Below, piece after piece: positions 23,352 to 64,000 of a stretch of 64,000 nt of DNA (positions within the stretch are counted from its first letter, which is position 1; every line of letters starts with the position of its first letter). Position numbers and translations under genes: made by a program. Source of the DNA: Methanothermococcus sp. Ax23. GTDB taxonomy: Archaea > AGJL01 > Methanococci > Methanococcales > Methanococcaceae. The notes under the pieces are model-generated. The model saw nothing but the letters and a program-made list of their open reading frames with translations, was not told the origin of the DNA and did not search any database. The DNA lies in NCBI RefSeq assembly GCF_049075655.1, contig NZ_CP157522.1, positions 224,001-288,000 on the forward strand, written 5' to 3'.

Positions 23352-24755
23352 ATGAAAATACATAGTGAGGATTTTGATGTCATAATTATTGGAGCAGGTC
23401 CAGCAGGACTTTTTGCCGCGTATGAGCTCGCAGAAAATAGCATGTTTAAGATTTTGATAGTTGAGAAAGGTTTTGATATAGACAAAAGAATATCTGACCT
23501 ACTCCAACGAGTGAACTCGTTGGGTTCTCGCTTACGGTAGTAAGCGAGCAACGAAATCACGAAGTGATTTCGTCTAATTTTAGTAGGGTTTAACCCTACA
23601 CGGGTGGCCAAGCCCACTACCCCTACCCATTAATGGGTTCAGGGCTACCTTTTGAACTTCCAACCACTACCAGCGGTAGAGTTTTCACTAACCCTACCCA
23701 TAGATACTTGGACTGGTAGCGTTACTTACTATTAATCTTCTCATATTTATATTTTACTACTTACTAGCCGATATAATGTCCGCCTCTCATCCAATCTCAT
23801 AAGAGATTTTACAAAACTATGTTTTGTATAACGATTAAAATCGTTGGCTTTCTCGGCGGTTTATCGTAAGTAGGGAGGACGAGATTTTTAAAATAAACAC
23901 AATATATATCATCGTAGCCACGGGGAGGGCTGGGGCAAACTGGTTTCATGATGTGGCTAAAAAAATAGGTTTAAATGCAGAGTATGGTCCAATTGATGTT
24001 GGCGTTAGGGTTGAAGTGCCTGCAATTATATGGAGCTCATAACAAACATATATCACGACCCGAAATTTCATATATATACTGATACATATGATGACTTTAT
24101 CCGAACCTTTTGCACAAATCCCCATGGTTTTGTTGTGTGGGAGATATATAAAGATTTTATTGGGGTCAATGGACACTCTATGAGGGATGAAAAAAGCAAC
24201 AATACAAATTTTGCTCTTTTAACTAGAATAGAACTTACAGAGCCTGTGGGGGATACCACAGCTTATGGGATGAGTATAGCATATTTAGCAACTACTATTG
24301 GTGGAGGGAAGCCTATTATTCAAAGATTGGGGGACTTAAAAAGAGGTAGGAGAAGCACATGGTCAAGAATCGGCAGGAGTAGTATTGAATCTACATTAAA
24401 AAATGTCTGCCCTGGAGACATAGCCATGGCTTTACCCCATAGGATAGTTACAGATATCATTGAAGGACTTGAAAAGCTTGATAAAGTCATTCCCGGGGTT
24501 GCAAGTGATTGCACACTTCTCTATGCTCCGGAAATCAAATACTATGCAATGAAGGTAATAGTGGATGAAAATCTTGAAACTAATATAAAAAATATATTTG
24601 TTGTAGGGGATGGGGCAGGAATTTCGAGGGATATTACAAATGCAGCAGCCACTGGAATTTTAGCTGCAAGAGGAATTTTAAAAAAAGAGGGTATTTGTAA
24701 TGATGCGGATTTTAAAAAAGAAGGCAATTGGAGAGAAAAAATAAATGGGTTGTAA
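23352..24755 (+). pseudogene. Disrupted NAD(P)/FAD-dependent oxidoreductase (uncharacterised FAD dehydrogenase family)
   Basis: N-terminal GAGPAG fragment ends at 23493; mobile insert 23494-23865; frame resumes (VATGRAGA..DVGVRVE) then shifts at ~24030 into the C-terminal part (YAPEIKYY, GDGAG). Confidence 0.85.
23494..23865 (-). mobile_element. Non-autonomous IS200/IS605-family derivative (372 bp) retaining both ends and a tnpB-like 3' tail / omegaRNA region
   Basis: Left end follows TTAC (23866-23869) with guide AAAG before hairpin CCAACGATTTTAATCGTT; right end has GAAC + hairpin CCAACGAGTTCACTCGTTGG + AGTAGG-TCAG; no TSD; tail translates KVALNPLMGRGSGLGHPCRVKPY*. Confidence 0.82.
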
Positions 24756-27304: not shown

Positions 27305-27379
27305 GGGCCCGTAGTTTAGCCTGGACAGAATGCGGGGCTTCGGACCCCGTGGTCGAGGGTTCAAATCCCTCCGGGCTCG
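27305..27379 (+). tRNA. tRNA-Arg(TCG)
   Basis: GGGCCCG/CGGGCTC acceptor stem; anticodon arm CGGGG-CTTCGGA-CCCCG; GGTTCAAATCC T-arm. Confidence 0.95.
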
Positions 27380-27399
27380 TATTTTTTATAACACTCGTT

Positions 27400-27496
27400 T
27401 CTTAGGTTCCAAACCTTACGAAGTAAGGTTTGGACTTTGGATGGCAACCTTTTTTAAAGGTTGCGTTTGAATCCCTCCGGGCTCGTATTTTTATAA
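27400..27496 (+). mobile_element. ~70-bp double-hairpin element plus duplicated tRNA-Arg 3' end
   Basis: Element 27400-27469; 27470-27496 repeats 27364-27391; homolog at 32640-32709 (minus). Confidence 0.8.
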
Positions 27497-27525
27497 TATT
27501 TTTATATCATATTTTATAAAATAAT

Positions 27526-28080
27526 TTAATCATCATTTTTTATGGCTATTTTTAATACTTTTTCTAAATTATTTAAATAGGTAGTATAATCTCCCTCATT
27601 AATAACAACATAATCAGCCAAAGATATTACCTTTCCAATGGAAAACTCCAATTCTCTTAAATCCCTTTCAACAAATTTATCCCATTCTGATGTATCATCT
27701 TCTCTTTTTCTTGATTTTAATCTGTTAAATCGGGTTTTCGGTGAAGAATGTATTGCTATAATTGTTAATGGATGGGATTTTCTAAAATAATTAACCTCAT
27801 ACATACTTCGTATGCCCTCTATGATAACTATTTCTTCGTTATTATAATTTTCCTCTATATATTGAAGGCATGGAACTGCTACTGCCTCGTTTCCATACTT
27901 CTTCCTTAGTTCCACTGCTGTATTTCCTACATTTTCGGGATTTAATTCCAATCCCTTTTTCATAGTTTCACGACGAACTACGTCCCCCATAGAAATTACT
28001 GGTATATTGTATTTTCTTGCTATTTCTATTATTGCACTTTTTCCAGAGCCTGGCATTCCTGTGATACCTATCAGTTTCAT
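27526..28080 (-). CDS. UPF0200 / dephospho-CoA-kinase-like P-loop kinase
   Basis: [36 protein letters not shown]. Confidence 0.8.
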
Positions 28081-28089
28081 GTTATCTCC

Positions 28090-28284
28090 TTAATTCACCG
28101 TCTTTAATACGTTCATTGTGGCATCCGATGTTTTATTTATTGCATCAATATTTGTATTTTTAATGTTTATTGCGGATTTGAGCATATAATACCCAAGCAC
28201 CGCCGCTGCGGTTATACCTGCAAACATGAGAATAGAAAATTCTAAGCTAATCTGCCCTCTACAAGAGCATATTTTTTTTATCAT
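28090..28284 (-). CDS. Class III signal peptide pilin-like protein (EppA-type substrate)
   Basis: RG/QISLEF cleavage motif (Q+1, E+5) followed by a hydrophobic helix. Confidence 0.85.
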   Translation of the reverse strand: MIKKICSCRGQISLEFSILMFAGITAAAVLGYYMLKSAINIKNTNIDAINKTSDATMNVLKTVN

Positions 28285-28372
28285 AAAACCACCAAAGTTA
28301 TGATAAAGTATATTTAATTAAATATGGTATATGTTATTCTTTTTATATAAATAATTTAATTCTGGTGATATT

Positions 28373-30874
28373 TTGATTATAATAAGAAAACTAAAAAAGA
28401 AAAAACAAAAACAAGAACTCGAAATAATTGACTTGGTAAATAATATAAAATATTACGGCACTTTAAGAGGGACGGACACTAAATTAAGCCTATATAAATG
28501 TAAAGAGGAAAAAGATGGGAACATAAAACCAATTCAGCCTTCAAGGGTAATGAATATCCTAAAAACCAGTAAAAAGGTTTATTTAAATAATGACGAAGAA
28601 TCATTAAAATTAGAGGATTTTTTAAAACAGAATAATATTAAATATAATTACATAGAGCTCTGCCCATTCTGCCTAATAAAGGGGAGATACAACGAAATAG
28701 ATAAAGGCAACAGATACAGATTTTACAATCAATATATATGTTTTGACTGTGCAGTGGAGGAAGTTAAACATGAAGTGAATATTAACGAGGAATTTATAGA
28801 AAAACTTTTACGAAGATTTAAGGATGTGAATAAAGTAATAGATTTATTTATTATGAAAAACCCACTAGATAACCCTGATTTAACAAAATATGATGTTTTA
28901 ACCGGTAGTGAAGAGGATAAAATAAGAAACTATAAAATAGACGAGTTGAATATCCCCTCTGAATTAAAGGAAATTATAAAAAATAGAGGTATAAAGGAGC
29001 TCCTACCAGTTCAAACACTCACCGTTAAAGGGGGCTTATTGGATGGAAAGGATTTGATAATTACCTCTGCAACATCCTCTGGAAAAACACTTATTGGGGA
29101 GTTAGCAGGCATAAATAATTTAAAGGAAGGCAAGGGAAAGTTATTATTTTTAGTCCCCCTTGTGGCATTAGCAAACCAGAAGTATATTGAATTTAAAGAG
29201 CGTTATGAAAAAATAGGGCTCACCGTGAGTTTGAGGGTTGGCATGGGGAGATTATCAGAAGATAAATCAGAATTCATAAATACAGATATAAACGCAGATA
29301 TTGTTGTTGGAACCTATGAAGGTATTGATTTTTTGGTTAGGTCTGGAAAATTAAGGGATGTAGGAACTGTTGTAATTGATGAAGTTCATTCATTGAATAT
29401 GGAGGAGAGAGGAGCTCGGCTTGATGGACTTATCGGCAGGTTGAGGTATCTAAAAAACATCTTAAAAAGTAATATTCAAATGATATATTTGTCCGCCACA
29501 GTGGGAAATCCAGAGGAGCTCGCAAAGAATCTTAATGCAAATGTGGTTATATACAATGGAAGACCTGTTCCACTTGAAAGACATATTATTTTTGCCAAAA
29601 ACGATTATAATAAATTGAATTTAATAAAAGAAATTGTTAAAAAAGAGTTCAACACAAAATCAAAATATGGATTTAGAGGTCAGAGTTTAATATTTACCTA
29701 TTCAAGAAAAAGGGCAGAATATATTTCGAATTTCTTAAATACAAAAGGAATAAAATCGGATTACTACCATGGAGGTATGGAGTATAAAAGAAGGAGAATG
29801 GTGGAGGATAATTTTTTAAATCAAAAAATCATGTGTGTAGTTACAACAGCAGCACTTGCAGCAGGTGTGGATTTCCCAGCATCTACTGCGGTTCTTGAAA
29901 GTTTAGCGATGGGTGGAGATTGGCTTAATCCATCAGAATTCCAGCAAATGTGCGGTAGGGCAGGTAGAAAGGGCATGCATGATAGAGGAAAGGTCTATAT
30001 GCTTGTGGAGATTGGTAAAAAATACCATGCTAAAATGGGAAACACTGAGGACGAGGTGGCATTTAAATTACTGAGCTCAGAAGCTGAGGATGTTGTGGTG
30101 CAATATACCGAGGATGAAGAGTTGGAACAGATACTTGCCAGTGTGAGCTCCGCTGAAAGATATTTGAAATCAATTAATAAATCAGTTAATAAAAGTGAAT
30201 TAAACAAGGTTCCATTAATGGGGAAAAATCACGATTTAGATTATATTATTGATAAATTAAACGACTATCATATGATAAAATCCTATAACAACAAAATAAA
30301 CATTACAAAATATGGCTATGCTACGGCAATATCATTTTTGTATCCGAAGGATGCCGAGCTTATTCGAACTAATTTAAATAAACCAATTATGGAATTAACT
30401 GCCCTAATAAATCCCTTTGAGAATTTATATGTTCCAAATAATATAAAAAATAAGATCTCAAAAATAATCCATACAAATATTCCAACAAGGTTTATAGATG
30501 CCTTTGAGATTGTAAAGGAAAATATTTCAAAAATAACCGATAGGGACTTAAGAGATAGGATTCTGCCGTGGATGGTAGAATTTGAAGGAATGATTGAGGA
30601 GGATATAATAAGATACTTCTCAAAATATGTATTAAATCTAAGGATAAATAAAAAAACACCCTCGCAGATTTCAAAGATTATCTATGAAAACTTCAATCTG
30701 CAAACCTATTCAGGGGACATATACTCATATCTTGAAAATACCATAAAAATTCTGGATGCAGTTGAAAGAATAGGAGGCATTTACAATAAAAATATATCCA
30801 ATGAAGCAAAGGATTTTAAGGAAAAAATTTCAAACCCATATAAATATAGAAAAAAGAAAAAAATTAAAAAATAA
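28373..30874 (+). CDS. Archaea-specific Ski2-like SF2 helicase (ASH-Ski2 type)
   Basis: N-terminal CPFC/CFDC, LLPVQ, SATSSGKT, DEVH, LSAT, QMCGRAGR. Confidence 0.85.
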   Translation: MIIIRKLKKKKQKQELEIIDLVNNIKYYGTLRGTDTKLSLYKCKEEKDGNIKPIQPSRVMNILKTSKKVYLNNDEESLKLEDFLKQNNIKYNYIELCPFCLIKGRYNEIDKGNRYRFYNQYICFDCAVEEVKHEVNINEEFIEKLLRRFKDVNKVIDLFIMKNPLDNPDLTKYDVLTGSEEDKIRNYKIDELNIPSELKEIIKNRGIKELLPVQTLTVKGGLLDGKDLIITSATSSGKTLIGELAGINNLKEGKGKLLFLVPLVALANQKYIEFKERYEKIGLTVSLRVGMGRLSEDKSEFINTDINADIVVGTYEGIDFLVRSGKLRDVGTVVIDEVHSLNMEERGARLDGLIGRLRYLKNILKSNIQMIYLSATVGNPEELAKNLNANVVIYNGRPVPLERHIIFAKNDYNKLNLIKEIVKKEFNTKSKYGFRGQSLIFTYSRKRAEYISNFLNTKGIKSDYYHGGMEYKRRRMVEDNFLNQKIMCVVTTAALAAGVDFPASTAVLESLAMGGDWLNPSEFQQMCGRAGRKGMHDRGKVYMLVEIGKKYHAKMGNTEDEVAFKLLSSEAEDVVVQYTEDEELEQILASVSSAERYLKSINKSVNKSELNKVPLMGKNHDLDYIIDKLNDYHMIKSYNNKINITKYGYATAISFLYPKDAELIRTNLNKPIMELTALINPFENLYVPNNIKNKISKIIHTNIPTRFIDAFEIVKENISKITDRDLRDRILPWMVEFEGMIEEDIIRYFSKYVLNLRINKKTPSQISKIIYENFNLQTYSGDIYSYLENTIKILDAVERIGGIYNKNISNEAKDFKEKISNPYKYRKKKKIKK

Positions 30875-30882
30875 TATATATT

Positions 30883-31638
30883 TTATCTTGTTTTATTTAG
30901 GAAGTAATCTAGGAATACTGTACCACCACCATAGCATGCTGGTTTTGGATGCAGTGATAAATAGAATTGGTATTGTGAATTATCATAATCAAATAATGCT
31001 TTGATTTCTTGGAATTTAATTTCATTTTTTGGAATATACCATGTATATTCGTTATTTGTGATTTTTTCAATAGTGCCGTTTGGGTAAATTAATTTATCAG
31101 TTAATATTATGGTATAATTATGTTTAAGAAGTACCTTCATAGAGTCATTACTTAATGCCCATGCAGGTGGAAGAAACAATGTCATATTATCAAACCCACA
31201 TTTTGACATTATAATTTCGGCATTGTAGAGTTTTTTTGAACATACACTTTTTGAACAGTTGAATTCGTGATAAGTATGTTTATAACCATGAAGTTCAACT
31301 TTATACCCTCTATTTTCTAATTGATGCAGATAATTAACAAATTCTTTATTTTTTCTTAAATCCCATTTTCCACCACTAGATGGGTTTTCAAGATCTGGAA
31401 TTACAAATAAAATGGTATTATTGCTGTAATTGTATTTATCAATAATTGGTATAATTTCTTTCAATTCATCAAAATATGCTGGACTTATATCATGTATCAG
31501 AATTATTGGCTTATTTTTTTGTTGGGAATTGGATATATTCCATAAATGCGAATTATTTAAATGACATGTGTTAAAAGATGCCGCTATTGTCAATAAAATT
31601 AACACTAATACGATTATTGGATATAATATTTTTTTCAT
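30883..31638 (-). CDS. DUF2334 / polysaccharide-deacetylase-like secreted protein
   Basis: IHDISP, ELHGYKH..HEF, FLPPAW, LSLHP; N-terminal TM. Confidence 0.75.
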   Translation of the reverse strand: MKKILYPIIVLVLILLTIAASFNTCHLNNSHLWNISNSQQKNKPIILIHDISPAYFDELKEIIPIIDKYNYSNNTILFVIPDLENPSSGGKWDLRKNKEFVNYLHQLENRGYKVELHGYKHTYHEFNCSKSVCSKKLYNAEIIMSKCGFDNMTLFLPPAWALSNDSMKVLLKHNYTIILTDKLIYPNGTIEKITNNEYTWYIPKNEIKFQEIKALFDYDNSQYQFYLSLHPKPACYGGGTVFLDYFLNKTR

Positions 31639-31647
31639 ATTGCCCCC

Positions 31648-32406
31648 CTATCGAGTTTCATTTAAAAAATAATCTAAAAATTTCAACCCTCCTCCATAAT
31701 TTACAGCTTTTGGATGGATTGATAAACAAAACTGGTGTTGTGAAGTTTTATAATCTGAAACTGCCAATAGTTCAACAGTTTTTGTAAGATTCTTAGGTAA
31801 ATACCAAGTATATTCTTTATTCGTAATTATAATCCTTTTAATAGAATTATTTTCCTTTTTTAATATATTGGGGCCTACGATAATTGAGATATTTTTATCT
31901 AGAAATACCTCTTCTGCGTCCTTTGATAATCCATACCTCGGTGGAATAAAGTATTTTATATTTTTAGTATCAAACCCGCAATCTTCCAATATTTTAAATG
32001 ATTTGTCGAGTTTTTCCCCTGCAACAGTCCTATTGCAGTCGTATTCTCTATTTATATGATTATATGCATGGTATTCAATGTGATAACCTTCATTTTCTAA
32101 ATGGTGTAGGTATTTTACAAACTCAGGATAATCTTTTAAGTTGTATTCATTTGCATGATTTACTATAACGAACAAGTAGGTTCTGTTTTGATAGTGGTGT
32201 TTGTTTATTATTTTTTCAATATCCTTTAACTCATTGAAGTATTTTGGACTAACATCATGGACAAGAATAATCGGTTTTTGAGTGGTATTATCCGATATAT
32301 CGCTTAACGGGTCAAATTCATAATTGTTATTTATCTCAAAAGTGGATATTAGCAATGGTATTATAATTATTAAAAAAATAAATGAATATGATATTTTTTT
32401 ATTCAT
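31648..32406 (-). CDS. DUF2334 / polysaccharide-deacetylase-like secreted protein (tandem paralog)
   Basis: VHDVSP, EYHAYNH, FIPPRY, LSIHP; clearly similar to the adjacent gene. Confidence 0.75.
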   Translation of the reverse strand: MNKKISYSFIFLIIIIPLLISTFEINNNYEFDPLSDISDNTTQKPIILVHDVSPKYFNELKDIEKIINKHHYQNRTYLFVIVNHANEYNLKDYPEFVKYLHHLENEGYHIEYHAYNHINREYDCNRTVAGEKLDKSFKILEDCGFDTKNIKYFIPPRYGLSKDAEEVFLDKNISIIVGPNILKKENNSIKRIIITNKEYTWYLPKNLTKTVELLAVSDYKTSQHQFCLSIHPKAVNYGGGLKFLDYFLNETR

Positions 32407-32530
32407 TGCCTCCCCCTTTATATTTTGTGTATATTTTTAAAAAGTTAAGGTATATATGAATTATTATAATTTTACTTATATAATAAGTTATATATTTAAA
32501 TTTATAAATACATTTGCCTAAAATAAAAAA

Positions 32531-32603
32531 TGCGCCAGTCGGGATTTGAACCCGAGTTACTGGCTTGGAAGGCCAGAGTGATACCAGGCTACACCACTGG
32601 CGC
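32531..32603 (-). tRNA. tRNA-Gly(TCC)
   Basis: GCGCCAG/CTGGCGC stem; anticodon loop CT-TCC-AA. Confidence 0.96.
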
Positions 32604-32614
32604 ACATATAGTAT

Positions 32615-32709
32615 TTGTAAAGATGCGGCCTCCGGGATTCAAACGCAACCTTTAAAAAAGGTTGCTATCCAAAGTCCAAAACTCGCTTCGCTCGTTTTGG
32701 AGCCTAAGA
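32615..32709 (-). mobile_element. ~70-bp double-hairpin element plus duplicated tRNA-Gly(GCC) 3' end
   Basis: Element 32640-32709; 32615-32639 repeats 32717-32741 (24/25). Confidence 0.8.
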
Positions 32710-32725
32710 CCATAAGTTGTAAGGA

Positions 32726-32798
32726 TGCGGCCTCCGGGATTTGAACCCGGGTATCGGCCGTGGCAGGGCCGTATGATACCAGGCTACATCAAGGCCGC
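32726..32798 (-). tRNA. tRNA-Gly(GCC)
   Basis: GCGGCCT/AGGCCGC stem; anticodon loop CT-GCC-AC; promoter at 32841-32855. Confidence 0.96.
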
Positions 32799-56589: not shown

Positions 56590-56810
56590 GTTTTCCCTCT
56601 TATGATTATGATAGGTTTAGATAATATCTAATAAAAATTTGAATAGAATTCAATTTTTATACCACACAGTTTTTACTTTATACACTCTACATTAAAAATA
56701 TAATAAAAATATAAATTATGTTTTAAAAAGATTATGTTTTATTATATCTCACATTATAAAAATTATGTTATAAATTTTCAACATCGGGTAGTCTCAGATA
56801 GAGCTCAACC

Positions 56811-57915
56811 GAGGTTGTCGAAAAATATTAAAGCATCAATAATATATAATACATATTATGAAAGGGAATTCAAAAAAGAAAAAAGAAAAGAAAAAGACCA
56901 ATACTAAGAGGAAAGAAAAATATTGGAAAGCTTACGATATTAGATATAAAAACTACGACCTAAGAACTACATATACATTAATTTTATCCATTACAAACAT
57001 GCTGAATCGTCCTTCTACTGAAGGACGAAAGGTTGGTAGGACACCAGTCCTACCACATAATGAATATGTGGTAGTTCTAATATTAAAATATATCTACAAA
57101 CTAAGTTTAAGAGATTTGGAAACGCTCTCAAATATTTTACACAACAGACATATCGACCATTCTACATACGGTAAAGCATTCAAGCGAATAGATAACTGGT
57201 GGTTATCTACCTTACTTACTTTTACATATGTAATTATAGACAATCTACTAAACCAGCCCTCCAACAAACTATATATGGCAGATTCCACAGGAGTTTCTAT
57301 AAATAGATTATATGATGAATGTATTCACCGTGGGAAACGGACTAAACGGTTAGTGCATGATAAATTGCATATATTGGCATGTCGCTTACGAAGTAAGCGA
57401 GTAATGAAATTGAAATCTATGATTTCAATTTCATCTGATTACTATCCAGAACAAGGCTATATCCCAATAGTTTCTGCTCGTTGGGGTGGTGCTTATAGTT
57501 CCGATAGTGCCAACCTATTAGAAATGGTTAAACAGATAGATTTTTTAGATAATGAATATCTATTGGCTGATGGAGGATATGATTGTTGTGAATTGTTTGA
57601 GTACTTATTACAACACAATATCACTCCAATAGTTAAAACAAAAGAATTCAAATGGAAGTATCACATTAGAAAAGTTAGAAAAACCATTAAAAGCATGTTT
57701 AATAAGGATTGGTATCGCCTTCGAGGGATAGTAGAATCCATATTTGGAGGGCTGGAGACTAAAAACAGATTAAAATTAGATGATAAGTTAGTAGATAGTA
57801 GATGTAAAAGCACTATCGCAGTAGCGATAGTGCATAACATATTAACACTAATGAGGATATTAGTATTAACATATGATACCAAATAAATTTACTAATTCAA
57901 TTATTCGACAACCTC
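56811..57915 (+). mobile_element. IS5-family-like insertion sequence, 1105 bp
   Basis: TIRs GAGGTTGTCGAA / TTCGACAACCTC; 9-bp TSD AGCTCAACC at 56802-56810 and 57916-57924. Confidence 0.92.
56858..57886 (+). CDS. DDE transposase (IS5/IS4 superfamily)
   Basis: ADSTG, KLH, LADGGYD, YRLRGIVESIFG. Confidence 0.9.
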   Translation: MKGNSKKKKEKKKTNTKRKEKYWKAYDIRYKNYDLRTTYTLILSITNMLNRPSTEGRKVGRTPVLPHNEYVVVLILKYIYKLSLRDLETLSNILHNRHIDHSTYGKAFKRIDNWWLSTLLTFTYVIIDNLLNQPSNKLYMADSTGVSINRLYDECIHRGKRTKRLVHDKLHILACRLRSKRVMKLKSMISISSDYYPEQGYIPIVSARWGGAYSSDSANLLEMVKQIDFLDNEYLLADGGYDCCELFEYLLQHNITPIVKTKEFKWKYHIRKVRKTIKSMFNKDWYRLRGIVESIFGGLETKNRLKLDDKLVDSRCKSTIAVAIVHNILTLMRILVLTYDTK

Positions 57916-57921
57916 AGCTCA

Positions 57922-57939
57922 ACCGAAAAGTATATATAT
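57922..57939 (+). promoter_or_regulatory. BRE-TATA promoter of tRNA-Leu
   Basis: ACCGAAAAG-TATATATA ~35 bp upstream of the tRNA. Confidence 0.75.
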
Positions 57940-57972: not shown

Positions 57973-58060
57973 GCAGGGGTTGCCAAGCCTGGCCAACGGC
58001 GCTGGACTTAAGATCCAGTCCCATAGGGGTTCGGGGGTTCAAATCCCCTCCCCTGCACCA
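57973..58060 (+). tRNA. tRNA-Leu(TAA), CCA encoded; probable integration site
   Basis: GCAGGGG/CCCCTGC stem, anticodon loop CT-TAA-GA, long variable arm. Confidence 0.96.
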
Positions 58061-58391
58061 TTTTCAAAATTCAACAATATAGCCGATTTACAAGGTTATT
58101 GAGTAATAAAAAATTACTGGATTTAATCCAGTAAGTAAAACGATACAATAACAGAATAAAATTGAGTAAGTATCGTAAATGAATAGGTCATTTATCAAAT
58201 ATCCTCAAAAAAATTAATTGGATAGTGTGAGCTTTGCTTTTTTGGTGTTAATGATTATATTTATTTATTTTGATGGTTTAATGTATTCGGTTATTGTCGT
58301 ATTGTTTTTAGTCAATTGTAGTATTTTTTATATATCTACATTGTTTTATTTAATTGTATTAATGTATGTTAAAAAAAGAATGTTTATTTTT

Positions 58392-61300
58392 TTACTCGCT
58401 TATGAGGAACCCTCTCCGAGGTTCCAGCAGTTCTCCAATATTTTTCAGTTTTTCAATAGTTTTTTCATATACTTCCTCTGGATACTTCAACACTTCTATA
58501 ATGTATTCCCAGAGTTCTGTTTCATTAATTCCATTTCTTGCTTTTTCAATAATCTCTTCCTCTATTGTCTTATTTTCTTCCTTGAATATTTTTATGAATC
58601 TTTCCAATAATTCATCCCTATCTATTATCTTTATTGTAGCATTCTCTCGTTTTTTCTTTAATTCTTTTGAAATGTAATTGTATATTGCAGAGAGTATATT
58701 CTTTATTTCTTCAAATTTTAATTTTATTCCACATTCTTTTTGGATTTCCATTATAATTTCTTTAATGGTTATTGTTTTATTTTTTAATCCATTTCCAAGT
58801 CCATATATTTTTTCCAACACTTTTGTCTCAAACATTTTTAAATATCCTTTTTCCATCTTACTGAGGTTCTCTTTTGCACATTTAACTATATTGTATGCTA
58901 TTTTTATTCTTTTAGTGATTGCACCCCACTTTGCTGGACTGAGCTCTGCTATCTTCATGGCAATATCTTTTTGAGTTCTGGCATCATCTCCAAGGATAAC
59001 TTCAGTAATCTTTGGGAACTCTTCATGCAGTTTGATATATTCAACGACTCTTCTTGCCATTTTTATATGCTTCACAATTAGGTATTTTTCATACTCACTG
59101 AACCTATCGTAGTTATTGTATTTTAACGCATTATTTACATCCTTAAACCTTTCATCAATAATATCTACTAACTTATTTACTTCTATCTTGTTTATCTCAG
59201 ATAGTTCCTTTCTTATTTCCAATACTTCTCCAATTTCTTCATCCATTATTTTTTCTATGGTTTTTATCTCCCACCCATGCCCTGTTGTCTCATCCAAATA
59301 TTTTTTCAATAATTCAGAGTTTGAAACAATTATTCTTTCTAATTTTCGATTTGTAAGATATGCTATTTTAGCCTCATCAACTTTATACCCTCCATCTTCT
59401 CTTTTCAAAATCTGCAACTGTTCTATTAGTTTTGTAGGTTTGAGTTCTTTTTCAATATCCAATATTTCTTTATTGTATTCTGAAACTAAATACTCTTTAA
59501 ATAATGAAAAGTCATCATTTGCCATACTTAGCATCTTTTCATATCTCAACATCTGTGATGCCTTCCCCTGTTCTGTATATATTATACAAGTGTCTCCCCC
59601 ATTTCTAACTCTTGCAAGGAACTGCCTGATAATTGTGGCTGATGAAGTTTTAAGGACTGCAACAACATCTACTTTATCCTTTATATTTAGTTGAATTGTT
59701 TCGTTTTCCCCTTCCCCATTTTTAATATTTATCCCTTCTGCAATTATTCTTGTTGCTAAAATTAAACCGTCTGGAACTCTTTCACTGTTTATTATCATCT
59801 GTGCCGCTTTATCTGTTCCAACAGTCTCCTTTGTAATTTTATAAATTTCTGAATTGAAGTTGTATAATTTAAGAATTTCTTCAATAGTATCTATATCCTT
59901 TTTTGAATCTACCAATACTATACCTTTTTTACTACCTTTGTTAAATTTCATTGTGATATATTTACAAAAATCTATAATGTTGTGGAGTCTTCCTTCTGAT
60001 TCAATTATGAAAGTATTTTTAAAGTATTCTTTTTTATCTTTAAATACTGCTTTGACAACCCTTTTGTTTTGTAGGTTTATGAGCTCAGGTGTTGCAGTTA
60101 ATAATATTGAAGCATATACTTTATTCAAATACTGTTCAATATTATTTATTTCCTTTTTCCTGAACTCTTTTTGTAAGATTAAATTGTGAGCCTCATCTAC
60201 TATCAATATAATGTCTTTATCTTCTTTTAGTTGTATTTCTTCTTTTCTCTCACCTATATCGATTACATCATACTTTATATCATACATTATCCTATCCAAT
60301 TGGTTATATGTTCCTATTACTAACCTTATTTCTTTTGCATTGTGAATTCTTGTAGTGCTACCTTCATAATATGCCGCCACTTTTGTTCCTTGGGATGCTA
60401 ATGTATTGTATGTCTGCATCACTTGTGATTTATAAGGGAATAGTAAGACAGTAATTTTCCCATTATTTTCTTCGTAGATTTTTCCTATGTTATTTGTTAT
60501 TGTGTATGTTTTCCCCCTTCCAGTTTCTGCCTGTAATATCACTGGTTTATTTTCTTTTGCAGAGTTGTCTATTGCTGTTTGTAGAACCTCGTATTTCAAA
60601 TACTTTTCACATTCAACTATTACTGCATTTTTATTCTTATCCAGTAATTCTTTTAAATATTCCTCCGCCTCAACATAATCATCCACTTTTGATGAAATTC
60701 CCTTCTTTTCAATAAATTCTAATATTTTATCTTTATATGCTCCCCATAGATATGCAATAACATTTGTTCTCAAATTATTGTTATGCCAATCTACTGCTAT
60801 GGCATTATATCCTTTATTTGGATATATGGTGCAATCTGGGTTATTTCCATCATTATAGTATATTGAATAGATGCTGATGTATTTACCATTTGATTTATAT
60901 CCCACTCTTAAATAGTCAAATAATTCTATAATCCACTTACTATCTTTGTATATTTCAGTTAATTTTGCCTGTATGAATTTCGTAAATTTGTATTCTTTTT
61001 TTGTTAATTCTTTAAAATCTTTAATTTTTATGTTTGATTTTTTGAGTTTATTGATTAGTTCAAATGATTCCGTTGTTTCACTTGCTTCTTTTACCATTTC
61101 TTTATATTCTTCATTATTTATTCCGAATTTGTAGAAAAATACTTCTGGAGCTATTGGTGCTAGATTTTTTCTTACATATAATATTTTACAGTCTCTCCCT
61201 CCCTCATATTTTTCTTTTCTGTTTTTTGTTCCAGGAAGTCTATCTACTCTTGCAATATCGTACATTGCAGTGTCTGCATCATGTCCAATTTGTTCTGCAA

Positions 61301-61952
61301 TTTTGGAAAGTATTGGGAGTTCTAACCTTGATATTGGTCTATCAATGTAATAGATGAACCTCAAACCCCCTCCGGTGAATGCAATAATGTGTGGTGTTGT
61401 GTAATCATCAGGGAGCTCTGAAAGTATTTTGTTTATTTTGTCATTTATCTCATCCATGGTAGGTTCTTTTTCTTTCCACTCCTCAACATCAAAATCAATA
61501 GGTATATAAATCCATGCTGTGGCTGATTTTGAACTCCCATTTTCCGTCTGTCTTGGTGCTATCCCTATTGATACAGTTGTTAATCTTGCTCTTTTACCTA
61601 TCTTTTTTAAAATTTCATTTTCTTTTTCGTAAATTCTGTTTGAAATTGATTCAGCAATGTTTTTTATGTCATCTGGATTAATCTCTGGGATTTCTATATA
61701 TTCAGAATATGCCCAGGAGTTTCTGTTATTTGGTTTTTGGTATTTCTTTTCCAATTCAACCAAATACCTAACTTCAAAATAGTTCATGTGTTTTATTGAT
61801 TTTTTTATATCCTTTTTGAGTTCTGGAATCGTTCCATCAACTACACTCCATACTATTTTATTTCTAAAATTGTAAATTGATGCCAGTAAAATACTTATAT
61901 GTTTAGTTATTTGTTTATTATTTGGCAAATTATATGAAGTGTATTTTTCCAT
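58392..61952 (-). CDS. Replication protein: AEP primase-polymerase domain fused to an SF2 helicase and a C-terminal winged helix
   Basis: IDFD, FTGGGLRF, YDIARVDRLPGTKN; AETGRGKT, VDEAH, TATP, AEGINI, QFLARVR. Confidence 0.8.
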   Translation of the reverse strand: MEKYTSYNLPNNKQITKHISILLASIYNFRNKIVWSVVDGTIPELKKDIKKSIKHMNYFEVRYLVELEKKYQKPNNRNSWAYSEYIEIPEINPDDIKNIAESISNRIYEKENEILKKIGKRARLTTVSIGIAPRQTENGSSKSATAWIYIPIDFDVEEWKEKEPTMDEINDKINKILSELPDDYTTPHIIAFTGGGLRFIYYIDRPISRLELPILSKIAEQIGHDADTAMYDIARVDRLPGTKNRKEKYEGGRDCKILYVRKNLAPIAPEVFFYKFGINNEEYKEMVKEASETTESFELINKLKKSNIKIKDFKELTKKEYKFTKFIQAKLTEIYKDSKWIIELFDYLRVGYKSNGKYISIYSIYYNDGNNPDCTIYPNKGYNAIAVDWHNNNLRTNVIAYLWGAYKDKILEFIEKKGISSKVDDYVEAEEYLKELLDKNKNAVIVECEKYLKYEVLQTAIDNSAKENKPVILQAETGRGKTYTITNNIGKIYEENNGKITVLLFPYKSQVMQTYNTLASQGTKVAAYYEGSTTRIHNAKEIRLVIGTYNQLDRIMYDIKYDVIDIGERKEEIQLKEDKDIILIVDEAHNLILQKEFRKKEINNIEQYLNKVYASILLTATPELINLQNKRVVKAVFKDKKEYFKNTFIIESEGRLHNIIDFCKYITMKFNKGSKKGIVLVDSKKDIDTIEEILKLYNFNSEIYKITKETVGTDKAAQMIINSERVPDGLILATRIIAEGINIKNGEGENETIQLNIKDKVDVVAVLKTSSATIIRQFLARVRNGGDTCIIYTEQGKASQMLRYEKMLSMANDDFSLFKEYLVSEYNKEILDIEKELKPTKLIEQLQILKREDGGYKVDEAKIAYLTNRKLERIIVSNSELLKKYLDETTGHGWEIKTIEKIMDEEIGEVLEIRKELSEINKIEVNKLVDIIDERFKDVNNALKYNNYDRFSEYEKYLIVKHIKMARRVVEYIKLHEEFPKITEVILGDDARTQKDIAMKIAELSPAKWGAITKRIKIAYNIVKCAKENLSKMEKGYLKMFETKVLEKIYGLGNGLKNKTITIKEIIMEIQKECGIKLKFEEIKNILSAIYNYISKELKKKRENATIKIIDRDELLERFIKIFKEENKTIEEEIIEKARNGINETELWEYIIEVLKYPEEVYEKTIEKLKNIGELLEPRRGFLISE

Positions 61953-61964
61953 AATCTCCCCATT

Positions 61965-62927
61965 TTATAAATTTCTTCTAATTGTGTTTAGTAAAATATC
62001 TGTTCGCTCTTTACTATGTGCGTAGAATAATGTTGTTTCTAATGAACTATGTCCCAAGTATTCTTTTACAATTTCAATTGGAACACCATTGTTCAGTAGT
62101 TCAACTGCCCTACCATGTCGTAGGGAATGAACAACTATTCTTTTATTTTTTGGAATCTCTCCCTCTTTCTTTAATTCATTCACGGCTCTTCTGAACATCT
62201 CACTAACCCAACCTCTTCTTACTTTCCCTCCTTTATCGTTCTGGAATATTGGGTCTTTGTCCTCTGTTTTTATGTTATATTTCACATATTCTCTTAATGC
62301 CATTAGTGTGTCCTTAGAACACACTACAAATCTTTCTTCACTAGATTTTGTATTTTTAATTCTGAACCTCCCCTCTTCAAAGTCGCAGTCTTCATAAGTT
62401 AAATTTATAATTTCTGAAATTCTGCATCCTGTGTCCCACAACATTCTGATAATTAAGGCATCTCTCATATTTGTTCTTCCCCTTCTTTGTAGAATCTTTT
62501 TTAATATTTTGTTCAATGTTTTCGAATTTACTGCATCATAGTGCTTTACTTCAAACTTTGTATATCTTCTTCTTTCTCTGCATTCCATTTCAAATTCCTT
62601 GAAATTTTCCAATCTCATAAGTCTATAAAACACTTTTAATAGTTTGAAATACTGACCTACTGAATTTCCCAATTTTCTTTCGTTTTCCAAATATTTGAAG
62701 AATTTACTGAATTCCTGTTTATTTAATTGGTCTGGTTCTTTGTTTATCCTCTCATAGCAGTATGAGAGAAAAACTCTGAGCCTTGATATATCACTTTTTA
62801 TTGTTGTCTCTTTTATTCTGTCAAATTCCCTTTCTTCTCTGAACTTCTCTATCCATTTGTCTTGGTTTGATAGTTCTACCTTTTTTTTATCAGGATTGAT
62901 AAGAATTAGATTTTCAATATCCTTCAT
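61965..62927 (-). CDS. Tyrosine recombinase/integrase
   Basis: TGCRISE, NTKS, HSLRHG, LGH and catalytic Tyr in TTLFY. Confidence 0.93.
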   Translation of the reverse strand: MKDIENLILINPDKKKVELSNQDKWIEKFREEREFDRIKETTIKSDISRLRVFLSYCYERINKEPDQLNKQEFSKFFKYLENERKLGNSVGQYFKLLKVFYRLMRLENFKEFEMECRERRRYTKFEVKHYDAVNSKTLNKILKKILQRRGRTNMRDALIIRMLWDTGCRISEIINLTYEDCDFEEGRFRIKNTKSSEERFVVCSKDTLMALREYVKYNIKTEDKDPIFQNDKGGKVRRGWVSEMFRRAVNELKKEGEIPKNKRIVVHSLRHGRAVELLNNGVPIEIVKEYLGHSSLETTLFYAHSKERTDILLNTIRRNL

Positions 62928-63204
62928 GGATTCCCTCTTCTTCTTGGTAGATAATACAATTGATTACAAAGTTTGCTCCTTCCCCAAATTTGTTTAATAT
63001 TTCAATTTCTTTATCTGATAGTGTTAGTAATTTTTTGTTAGTTAATTTTCTCTTTTTTATTTCTGCTATCACTCTTGGGTCTATGCCTTTGTAATTTTCT
63101 GCTTTATGTAGATAGTATCTGAGCTCTCTTGCACCTATGTTTTTGTAGATGTTAAAATATTTTTTTGAATACTTTTTCCCTTTATCCTTGCTCATGCACT
63201 TCAT
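62914..63204 (-). CDS. DUF2540 / MJ0366-like knotted ribbon-helix-helix protein
   Basis: F.IYKNI..RELRYYLHK.EN...LTLS..E.EI...G..ANF..NC matches my recollection of MJ0366; overlaps the integrase start. Confidence 0.75.
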   Translation of the reverse strand: MKCMSKDKGKKYSKKYFNIYKNIGARELRYYLHKAENYKGIDPRVIAEIKKRKLTNKKLLTLSDKEIEILNKFGEGANFVINCIIYQEEEGIHEGY

Positions 63205-63287
63205 AGTTTCCCTTCATACTATTTTTGTAGAGCTCTACAAGTGGTAGTAATACTCACATTGTAGAGCTCCTATTGTTGCAGTATTAC

Positions 63288-63644
63288 TTACAGTATTCGA
63301 TATGTTCCAGTGTTCGGTTCGTATATTTCCCCATCTTCTATTAGTAATTTTATCGTTTTACCTACCTCTTTTAGAACCCTTTCCTTTAATCGCTCATAGG
63401 TTATCTCATCATTTTCCATGATTATGTTTAATATTAATTCCTTGAATGTCTCTGGAACCCTATCAACTTCAAACATATTACTTATATTCTCTTCATCAAT
63501 AATGTATCCATCATCATCTTCATCGACATTCTCAAAATATCCGCAGTTTAAACAATACCAACCATGCTCGTCTTCATCCCATACCATAGGACCATTTGGA
63601 CAATTAGGACAATGGGGGGCATTGTCATCAAACACTTTTGCCAT
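63288..63644 (-). CDS. Zn-ribbon plus acidic linker plus winged-helix small protein
   Basis: CPNC...CLNCGY; C-terminal LIEDGEIYEPNTGTYRIL; GGTGA RBS. Confidence 0.7.
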   Translation of the reverse strand: MAKVFDDNAPHCPNCPNGPMVWDEDEHGWYCLNCGYFENVDEDDDGYIIDEENISNMFEVDRVPETFKELILNIIMENDEITYERLKERVLKEVGKTIKLLIEDGEIYEPNTGTYRIL

Positions 63645-63648
63645 GATT

Positions 63649-63828
63649 TCACCTTTTCCATAAATTGATATAAATTCTGCCCCCGTTGTTCCTTCTATTT
63701 TTATACTCTTTGCTTACTGAACAGCTCCATCTTTTCAGTTTTTTGAATTCTTTTGTTATCTTTTCAACCGTGTATTCTGCATCTTTTTTCTCTGCCTCTG
63801 AATTCCACATGACTCTGATATTTACCAT
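63649..63828 (-). CDS. 59-aa hypothetical protein, missed by the ORF track (MVNIRVMWNS...SKEYKNRRNNGGRIYINLWKR)
   Basis: GGTG RBS upstream; its stop overlaps the RBS of the next gene. Confidence 0.6.
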   Translation of the reverse strand: MVNIRVMWNSEAEKKDAEYTVEKITKEFKKLKRWSCSVSKEYKNRRNNGGRIYINLWKR

Positions 63829-64000
63829 GTTTGCACCTATTTATGCTCTTTATAACCACTTTGAATTGTTTTTTAGTAAGTCCATACTTAGCATCTATCT
63901 TCTTTTTCCACTTCTCAAACTCTCCCTTATTTACTAACTTTACCTTTACTCCTCCTAGACATTCTAAAACTTCTTTCTCTTTTTGAAATGCCTTTTTTCC

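Follow-up and report, generated by a model that had tools for sequence, protein, structure and literature searches.

The stretch of DNA analyzed here, which we call the window, comprises 64,000 nt of the genome of Methanothermococcus sp. Ax23 (NZ_CP157522.1, positions 224,001 to 288,000 of the forward strand). At two places in the window an intact tRNA gene is followed by a short cassette, and the cassette in turn by a second copy of the 3' end of that same tRNA gene, once behind tRNA-Arg(TCG) and once, on the opposite strand, behind tRNA-Gly(GCC) (Table 1). The two cassettes, at 27401-27469 (+) and 32640-32708 (-), are 87% identical to each other, and the direct repeats that enclose them agree at 93% (27359-27386 with 27465-27492) and at 90% (32615-32644 with 32717-32746). 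The cassette is a small, non-coding, non-autonomous insertion element with a core of ~62 nt, which reaches ~75 nt when a subfamily-specific left extension is included. The genome to which the window belongs is designated G000 among those compared here (1.66 Mb plus a 7.7-kb contig, 31.9% G+C), and its main contig is referred to as C1.

Table 1. The two insertion loci of the window, in window positions; G numbers are the genomes compared.
Feature	Position	Strand	Basis or remark
tRNA-Arg(TCG), intact, target of insertion 1	27305-27379	+	ARAGORN; Rfam RF00005, 60.9 bits
Upstream target copy, Arg locus (T-loop, acceptor 3' strand, T-rich trailer)	27359-27391	+	Repeat search; anchored alignment; single in G003
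Element copy 1, Arg locus	27392-27464	+	Sequence; nhmmer E 5e-22; missing from the orthologous site of G003
Copy 1, left extension, 10 nt	27392-27401	+	
Copy 1, left end TTAGG	27402-27406	+	
Copy 1, hairpin 1	27408-27434	+	
Copy 1, conserved linker		+	Between hairpins 1 and 2
Copy 1, hairpin 2	27444-27464	+	Right end of the element
Downstream target copy, Arg locus	27465-27496	+	0 nt after hairpin 2; positions 4-5 CA>TG
tRNA-Gly(TCC)	32530-32604	-	ARAGORN, Rfam
Downstream target copy, Gly locus, 30 nt	32615-32644	-	Same CA>TG at positions 4-5
Element copy 2, Gly locus	32645-32716	-	Sequence; nhmmer E 1e-23; in G003, not in G012, G004, G005 or G010
Copy 2, hairpin 2	32645-32665	-	
Copy 2, linker		-	Between hairpins 2 and 1
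Copy 2, hairpin 1	32675-32701	-	Tandem G.A/A.G
Copy 2, left end TTAGGC	32702-32707	-	
Copy 2, left extension, 9 nt	32708-32716	-	
Upstream target copy, Gly locus, 30 nt	32717-32746	-	Repeat search; single in G012, G004, G005, G010
tRNA-Gly(GCC), intact, target of insertion 2	32726-32798	-	ARAGORN; Rfam 60.4 bits

An earlier, sequence-only reading of this DNA had described a cassette of this kind behind each of the two tRNA genes, and both the sequence and a repeat search place the cassettes and their direct repeats where that reading put them. The coordinates it gave for the tRNA genes were wrong, being those of the cassettes themselves; ARAGORN and Rfam put the genes at 27305-27379 and 32726-32798. 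The duplications it reported are present, but they start 5 nt earlier than it had noted, flush with the end of hairpin 2. Near the start of each duplicate two bases are altered, such that GTTCA in the tRNA reads GTTTG in the copy. The two cassettes do have the same orientation relative to their tRNAs, both of which are intact, as had been described. The Gly copy had further been placed inside a probable dicistronic precursor, and this agrees with the empty-site genomes, in which the spacer between the two tRNA-Gly genes is ~10-25 nt. In G000, insertion 2 parts tRNA-Gly(GCC) from tRNA-Gly(TCC), which ARAGORN finds to be the sole gene for that anticodon in the genome. Rfam returned only tRNAs in this region of the window and nothing at four other cassette loci.

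The element consists of two hairpins joined by a conserved linker, with no open reading frame (ORF). Its left end is TAGG(Y)TCC, and in both window copies this is preceded by a common left extension that ends in TC before TTAGG. Hairpin 1 follows, with a stem of ~11-12 bp that varies between copies and a GAA-type loop (GATAG in one subfamily). The linker, ~YTTTGGATRG, leads to hairpin 2, GCAACCTTT-TTT-AAAGGTTGC, the loop of which holds a run of six T and the final base of which is the right end of the element. The two ends, TAGGYTCC... and ...AAAGGTTGC, are not inverted copies of one another. The structure was tested on 16 distinct copies from four genomes, using five measures and 500 shuffles. 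Standard pairs made up 91.6% of cells in the two-hairpin structure, with changes on both sides at 9 of the 21 pairs; no shuffle matched the observed value on four of the measures, and one of the 500 did so on the fifth, which counts further pair types. The pairing signal was lost when the partners were slid by 1-3 columns. Tandem G.A/A.G occurs in hairpin 1 of 11 of the 16 copies, and the copy at C1:470601 has hairpin 1 inverted, with a TTC loop. Folded as single-stranded DNA, the Arg copy has a predicted energy of -19.7 kcal/mol (z -7.1) and the Gly copy -15.5 kcal/mol (z -4.9), with z-scores overall from -4.7 to -8.2, and the complementary strands are about as stable. The sequence-only reading had supposed a tiny non-autonomous element, and this is supported: the element is tiny and non-coding, and no longer version with an integrase, an HUH nuclease or a reverse transcriptase was found. 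Three loci contain, in addition, a small hairpin module of another, unrelated kind, placed in the hairpin 2 loop or between the hairpins: C1:1316696-1316829, C1:426641-426700 and L052, which is the Arg-TCG locus of G012. The resulting composite elements reach ~200 nt.

With a profile built from nine copies (nhmmer, cut-off E<1e-3), the genome gives 25 matches at 18 loci, namely 18 single copies and a seven-unit tandem array at C1:869118-869864 with a period of 112 nt. Tandem units of element plus duplicate are seen at six or more loci. Among 41 related genomes, the cassette occurs in seven, which fall in three genera: G000, G003, G010 and G012 belong to one of these, and G013, G015 and G017 to the other two. 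A search of two complete genomes from the same genus did not find it, and the Methanocaldococcus genomes gave no cassette match. Five other genomes and a metagenome-assembled genome (MAG) contribute ~30 more copies, most of which show the same pattern of flanking duplication; G010 has a single cassette locus, and the exact hairpin 2 pattern is present in a Methanothermococcus MAG. A scan of metagenomes yielded 41 loci, about half of them from the same or near-identical organisms, and gained one new polymorphic site. The rest were unrelated palindromes resembling hairpin 2, without duplications, and provide no evidence for the family. No exact hairpin 2 pattern was matched in viral contigs, and blastn found no match to the element in plasmids and phages. 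In one metagenome contig, L132, a single cassette has the left flank of one site on one side and another site's right flank on the other (compare L130 and C1:303524). This join reflects either recombination between copies or an assembly chimera at a repeat.

Seven of the 18 loci in the genome lie behind tRNA genes (Arg-TCG, Gly-GCC, Arg-TCT, Pro-GGG, Ile-GAT, Thr-GGT and Val-GAC), and behind tRNA-Val(GAC) two different subfamily members stand in series. One further locus lies behind an orphan tRNA-Leu(TAA) 3' part, which is the right attachment site (attR) of an integrated element, and another precedes an orphan tRNA-like fragment. Since tRNA genes make up ~0.2% of the genome, the bias toward them is strong, though not exclusive. 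The nine other loci are unrelated to tRNAs and lie at the ends of protein genes. At seven of these nine, the copy begins between -16 and +7 nt from the stop codon of a co-directional ORF, and in four of the seven the ORF stops at or just within the start of the cassette match; at C1:535966 the TAG of the element itself serves as the stop, at a cost of two codons. For the two remaining non-tRNA copies the reference point is the start codon of an opposite-strand ORF, and the copies begin 7 and 16 nt upstream of it. At all loci the intact gene end is held in the upstream duplicate, and the duplication extends beyond the gene end. Insertion occurs in one orientation only, strictly relative to the neighboring gene.

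Long direct duplications accompany the insertions generally. In a flank test, in which 160 nt upstream of each match were aligned with 110 nt downstream and 300 random positions served as controls (95th percentile 11.5), 21 of the 25 family matches scored above the control 95th percentile, so that the repeats cannot be put down to chance. The other four are accounted for individually. At C1:46588 the downstream duplicate was displaced by 2 kb through a later IS607-like insertion; this 2-kb element, which encodes a serine recombinase and TnpB, lies in the interval C1:46588-48700 and sits 7 nt past hairpin 2. C1:426641 is composite, and its degenerate duplicate can be made out by eye, C1:1640530 is an old, degenerate second copy behind tRNA-Val, and C1:371689 has a downstream tRNA-like fragment without an upstream partner. 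Duplications range overall from 21 to ~100 nt and vary by locus. In 34 rows, three of which are inflated by arrays, the length was 21-32 nt in eight, 38-49 nt in five, 52-68 nt in 17 and more than 75 nt in four.

Comparison of filled with empty sites shows how these duplications came about. At Arg-TCG, the site is filled in G000 and empty in G003, which has one copy of the segment between flanks that are 88-96% identical; the insertion in G000 amounts to 73 nt of element plus 32-33 nt of duplication. The Gly-GCC site is filled in G000 and G003, whereas it is empty and single-copy in G012, G004, G005 and G010. Behind tRNA-Gly(TCC) there is a cassette only in G012, followed by that tRNA's own 3' end, and the other genomes are empty. 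The fourth case is the 3' end of a protein gene, where a metagenome contig 97-99% identical to G000 is filled, with a 60-nt duplication, and G000 is empty (C1:840611-840670). These four empty/filled pairs show that insertion gave rise to the duplications. Mobility is current or very recent, and the element has been active since close genomes and strains split. The view, put forward in the sequence-only reading, that the repeats were copied from the target and do not represent a fixed attP is thus borne out, as each locus has a duplicate of its own and the sites that it proposed to look for, empty and orthologous, do exist in related genomes. Its further suggestion that the T-arm is recognized generically is not supported in that form, since half of the loci in the genome (9/18) are at protein-gene ends, with duplications that are equally good. 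The outcome that it had named as a refutation, with most other copies away from tRNAs and lacking duplications, did not occur, because the non-tRNA copies have them.

What the sites share can be seen at the right junction. The downstream duplicate is flush with the end of hairpin 2 (0 nt) at 16 of 26 sites, while at five more it begins 2-8 nt further on, and the same placement is found in most of the ~30 copies from other genomes. The left junction is looser, with 0-19 nt from the end of the upstream duplicate to TAGG, part of which is the subfamily-specific left extension. At tRNAs, the duplicated segment begins GTTCAAAT, GTTC(A/G)AAT, at G53 of the T-arm, while at the non-tRNA sites it begins with the looser motif ~RTKSAAAW. 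The motif lies within the tRNA or within the last or first codons of the protein gene. Position +7 is A in 22 of 26 rows, and AAA is present at +5 to +7 in 9 of 21 independent non-tRNA targets, compared with 5.3% of random positions. A T-loop-like motif at the start of the duplicated segment, not the T-arm itself, is what the sites have in common, and a reading confined to tRNAs is too narrow.

The downstream duplicate also carries a scar at this junction. Its mismatches to the target amount to 37% in nt 1-5, 14% in nt 6-10 and 2-8% beyond. Over the first 10 nt at 20 non-tRNA loci, A>G (18/92) and C>T (7/21) are frequent, and G>A (3/45) and T>C (2/42) are not. The bodies of the duplicates show the opposite trend, G>A in 24/134 and A>G in 3/317, which is ordinary for an A+T-rich genome. 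At five loci the scar is seen with zero mismatches in the body; as it is present while the body is still identical, it was probably made at or near insertion. The GTTTG variant of the tRNA sites recurs at at least 10 independent tRNA sites in several genomes. Changes of A>G and C>T on the sense strand fit either G.T/T.G wobble with the bottom strand of the target or deamination of an exposed top strand.

That this is a mobile element which creates target duplications is, taken alone, very likely. We also favor, with rather less assurance, the more specific reading that it is inserted by a staggered, polar reaction. In such a reaction, an enzyme supplied in trans would carry out a polar strand transfer at two sites. 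In the first joint, which would be sequence-specific, the sense strand of the element would be attached through its 3' end to the base immediately 5' of the motif, and the second would be made on the other strand at a loosely measured distance. Gap repair would then yield the target duplication, and selection would retain only those insertions in which a gene end falls within the duplicated stretch. In the downstream duplicate, the top strand would be original DNA that stays single-stranded until fill-in. If the part next to the element were filled last, a strand-specific scar could be left at the place where it is observed, and the scar would then mark a single-stranded or wobble-paired intermediate at the right joint. 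Unequal exchange and re-insertion at the motif are both possible origins of the tandem arrays. At tRNA-Val re-insertion is needed, because unequal crossing-over cannot make two different elements in series.

Several observations weigh against a staggered, polar insertion. The range of duplication lengths is very broad, which is unusual for a fixed spacing of active sites. The first 3 nt of the duplicate follow the target and positions 4-5 do not, which simple cut-and-fill does not predict. Two family matches do not fit, the partnerless C1:371689 and the flank-mixing metagenome contig L132. There are no terminal inverted repeats, and hence the usual link from a miniature inverted-repeat transposable element (MITE) to its parent insertion sequence (IS) is missing. 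In the genome, no mobilizing enzyme was identified, and the searches turned up no autonomous version that shares the element's ends. A scan with the end motifs for an autonomous partner gave only a solo hairpin 1 copy (C1:1206595) and chance matches, and a scan of all hairpin-2-like palindromes for distant upstream duplicates gave nothing besides the known copies. The tyrosine recombinases of the genome comprise three matches, two in the integrated element at tRNA-Leu and one near tRNA-Ser. A composite transposon bounded by the two window copies was considered and rejected, as the 5.1 kb between them holds ordinary genes (kinase-like, a large helicase and two paralogous genes).

A possible source of the missing activity is the CRISPR integrase of the host. 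Here Cas1-Cas2 would insert the element at pseudo-repeat sites as an over-long selfish spacer, with the target in the role of the repeat and the tandem arrays as accidental CRISPR-like arrays; we regard this as unlikely, at roughly one chance in five. With a length of 30 nt, the CRISPR repeat of the host opens with GTTAAAAT, from which the T-loop start GTTCAAAT differs by one base, and the Cas1-adjacent repeats of G012, G013 and G017, three of the six other cassette genomes, share the host repeat start. The G010 array has a different repeat start, and no array was found beside the Cas1 of G015. In Pyrococcus, G1-T2-T3 of the 30-bp repeat is reported to be the main determinant for Cas1-Cas2, and off-target integration occurs as well (PMC6698737). 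The mean number of matches to nt 1-8 of the repeat is 3.86 for the non-tRNA targets of the element and 2.54 for random 8-mers, and none of 20000 resamples came up to the observed mean, but this likeness is weak and driven by the A run. As in spacer integration, the duplicated segment begins exactly at the motif and the insert comes to lie between two copies. The duplications of the window copies, 30 and 32-33 nt, are near the repeat length, yet most duplications are 52-68 nt rather than 30, with only 8 of 34 rows at 21-32 nt, and the element at 62-75 bp is much longer than the spacers (~37 bp).

Cas1 is present in all seven cassette-bearing genomes and in 21 of the 34 others, and within the genus in 5/5 against 1/8, but this phyletic link is confounded by clade. 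Because 21 of the 34 element-free genomes also have Cas1, its presence would be necessary and not sufficient, and one of these 21 Cas1-positive genomes without the element, G008, even has the same repeat start. No element lies within any genuine array, and none of 88 spacers matches the element. The CRISPR-integrase link is thus a lead, not a proof. Were it correct, which we consider unlikely, the element would be a structured-DNA parasite of CRISPR adaptation, with tRNA T-loops as the best mimics of the repeat start. No mobile element known before it would have relied on a CRISPR integrase provided in trans, and it would stand as a living intermediate that links casposons to CRISPR arrays.

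About equally doubtful is a scheme with no dedicated enzyme, in which the element spreads when replication or repair involves copy-choice or homeologous strand invasion. An end, either nascent or broken, would leave the target and copy a donor up to the hairpin 2 base and a few flanking bases, and would then re-anneal at a short T-loop-like homology and recopy the target segment. This would explain several features of the junctions. The presence of GTTTG after hairpin 2 at at least 10 independent tRNA sites is more easily obtained by carry-over from a donor than by repeated mutation, and at the non-tRNA junction of the array at C1:869118 a C>G change matches the junction of another copy. The junction changes preserve G.T or T.G wobble to the target's bottom strand, the left junctions are imprecise, and the T-arm, as a sequence common to many loci, would account for the tRNA bias. 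However, the first 3 nt of the duplicate follow each target, even at unique protein-gene sites, such that each would need a matched donor, and two template switches would be required on microhomologies of a few bases. Copy-choice also leaves unexplained the strict orientation, the conserved linker and the compensatory upkeep of both hairpins.

A DDE transposase that makes long, variable staggered cuts could also act in trans, and the candidate in this genome would be its IS5-like element, although we consider this quite improbable. That element has eight copies with DUF772 and DDE_Tnp_1 domains, and the target duplications around it measure 12-31 bp; its relatives occur in five of the 41 genomes, and all five are among the seven that bear cassettes. 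IS1634 and IS1549 reportedly make long, variable direct repeats. On the other hand, the inverted repeats of the IS5-like element, beginning GTGTGGGTCA, are unlike the ends of the cassette, which has no inverted termini at all, and the ranges of duplication length differ between the two. No IS5-like element is present at E<=1e-10 in two of the cassette genomes, of which one holds more than 20 cassette copies. One copy of the IS5-like element lies at C1:447416-448341, and its 12-31 bp duplications are in themselves much longer and more variable than is usual for the family.

Less probable still, and by a clear step, is a retroposon resembling a short interspersed nuclear element (SINE), inserted by target-primed reverse transcription. 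The variable duplication length, exact 3' junction, sloppy 5' junction and A-rich target would all be in keeping with such a mode, as would the one 5'-truncated copy (C1:1472166). But the element has no 3' tail, the inverted hairpin 1 at C1:470601 points to an event at the DNA level, and a search of this 98.9%-complete genome for RVT_1 (PF00078) gave no match, while the same search was positive in 3 of 14 control genomes.

Lastly, the 3' ends of tRNA genes are classic bacterial attachment sites (attB), and the repeats could on that ground be taken for collapsed attL/attR remnants of ordinary tRNA-targeting elements with a tyrosine integrase. A genuine ~21-kb element does sit at tRNA-Leu(TAA) in the window, with one cassette behind its attR, and integrated plasmids of Methanococcales reportedly use tRNA-Ser and tRNA-Leu 3' ends (PMC6972569), but this interpretation is close to refuted by the presence of 18 different repeats at 18 loci, nine of them in protein genes, by the mere 62-75 bp of non-coding DNA, with no integrase gene, between the repeats, by the two different elements in series behind one tRNA, and by the usual inclusion of the anticodon in the att sites reported there, where the cassette duplications begin in the T-loop.

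If our description holds, the element represents an archaeal class of small insertion elements with an unusual signature, in which two hairpins without inverted ends and polar insertion are combined with long variable duplications, a preference for a T-loop-like motif and a strand-specific scar at one junction. The element explains the short tRNA 3' pseudo-fragments and the small tandem arrays at gene ends in these genomes, and its insertions are markers that differ between very close strains. The element stands between genes of one transcript, as in the tRNA-Gly pair, and has a six-T loop; it must therefore influence transcription, be it by acting as terminator, promoter or processing signal. 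The likeness of the target motif to the CRISPR repeat raises the question of whether a CRISPR integrase can mobilize selfish DNA, which bears on the origin of CRISPR arrays from transposon-like ancestors.

The surroundings of the two loci contain other mobile DNA. The integrated element at tRNA-Leu spans window 57973-64000 and continues to about C1:303478; tRNA-Leu(TAA) itself (57973-58060) is repeated, from the anticodon arm to the 3' end, at C1:~303400-303478, with ~21.4 kb of integrated element between. Its tyrosine-recombinase matches are at window 62007-62516 (-) and C1:291399-291785, and a host CRISPR spacer matches C1:296238-296273 within it at 94% over 36 nt (2 mismatches). Window 56807-57938 holds a 1.1-kb DDE insertion sequence with six genome copies. 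TnpB elements, together with short derivatives of them, are very abundant in the genome. A ~380-bp repeat at window 23483-23869, with ~20 copies, has a left end that resembles the right end of a TnpB-type element, and a ~315-bp repeat with ~10 copies is similar to the IS607-like element's right end. The 7.7-kb contig, C2, has overlapping ends and a helicase-like ORF of ~1200 aa across the junction, with no integrase or transposase, and is probably a circular plasmid.

The element is explained by no enzyme or element family known so far, and a literature search that covered main texts did not find such an element, although it may be listed in the supplement of a MITE survey (PMC11602168). Among the systems that it calls to mind, the MITEs are near in general habit: the element is short, non-coding, multi-copy and structured, its distribution among close relatives is patchy, it shows presence/absence polymorphism, it lies mostly at gene ends and it is flanked by target duplications. 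It differs in that it has no terminal inverted repeats and its ends match no IS family in the genome. The target duplications of MITEs are fixed at 2-10 bp, whereas those of the element are variable, from 21 to ~100 bp, and its orientation is strict, with one junction exact and the other sloppy. The long, variable-length target duplications recall IS1634 and IS1549. These are autonomous DDE elements of ~1.5-2 kb with inverted ends, and the element is non-autonomous and lacks such ends.

The palindrome-associated transposable elements (PATEs) of the IS200/IS605 family are likewise small, with a hairpin near each end and no inverted terminal repeats. They require a Y1 transposase and make no target duplication, in contrast to the element, which duplicates its target at nearly all copies; Y1_Tnp (PF01797) had no match in this genome, with six of 14 control genomes positive. 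Casposons enter tRNA and protein genes at the 3' end without disrupting the gene, and the element, too, inserts at gene 3' ends with the gene kept whole. The target duplication of casposons is 14-15 bp. The element has neither a duplication of this length nor inverted ends, a Cas1 gene or any ORF, and the sole Cas1 in the genome is 1.5 kb from a 51-repeat CRISPR array. From the spacers of that type of array the element is set apart as one conserved ~65-bp family, as against varied 37-bp spacers, and by a duplication that is not fixed at 30 bp. What it shares with spacer integration by Cas1-Cas2, the non-canonical ('neo-CRISPR') kind included, is a segment with a G-T-T...A-rich motif at its start that is duplicated around the insert, and the resulting arrays of repeat, insert and repeat.

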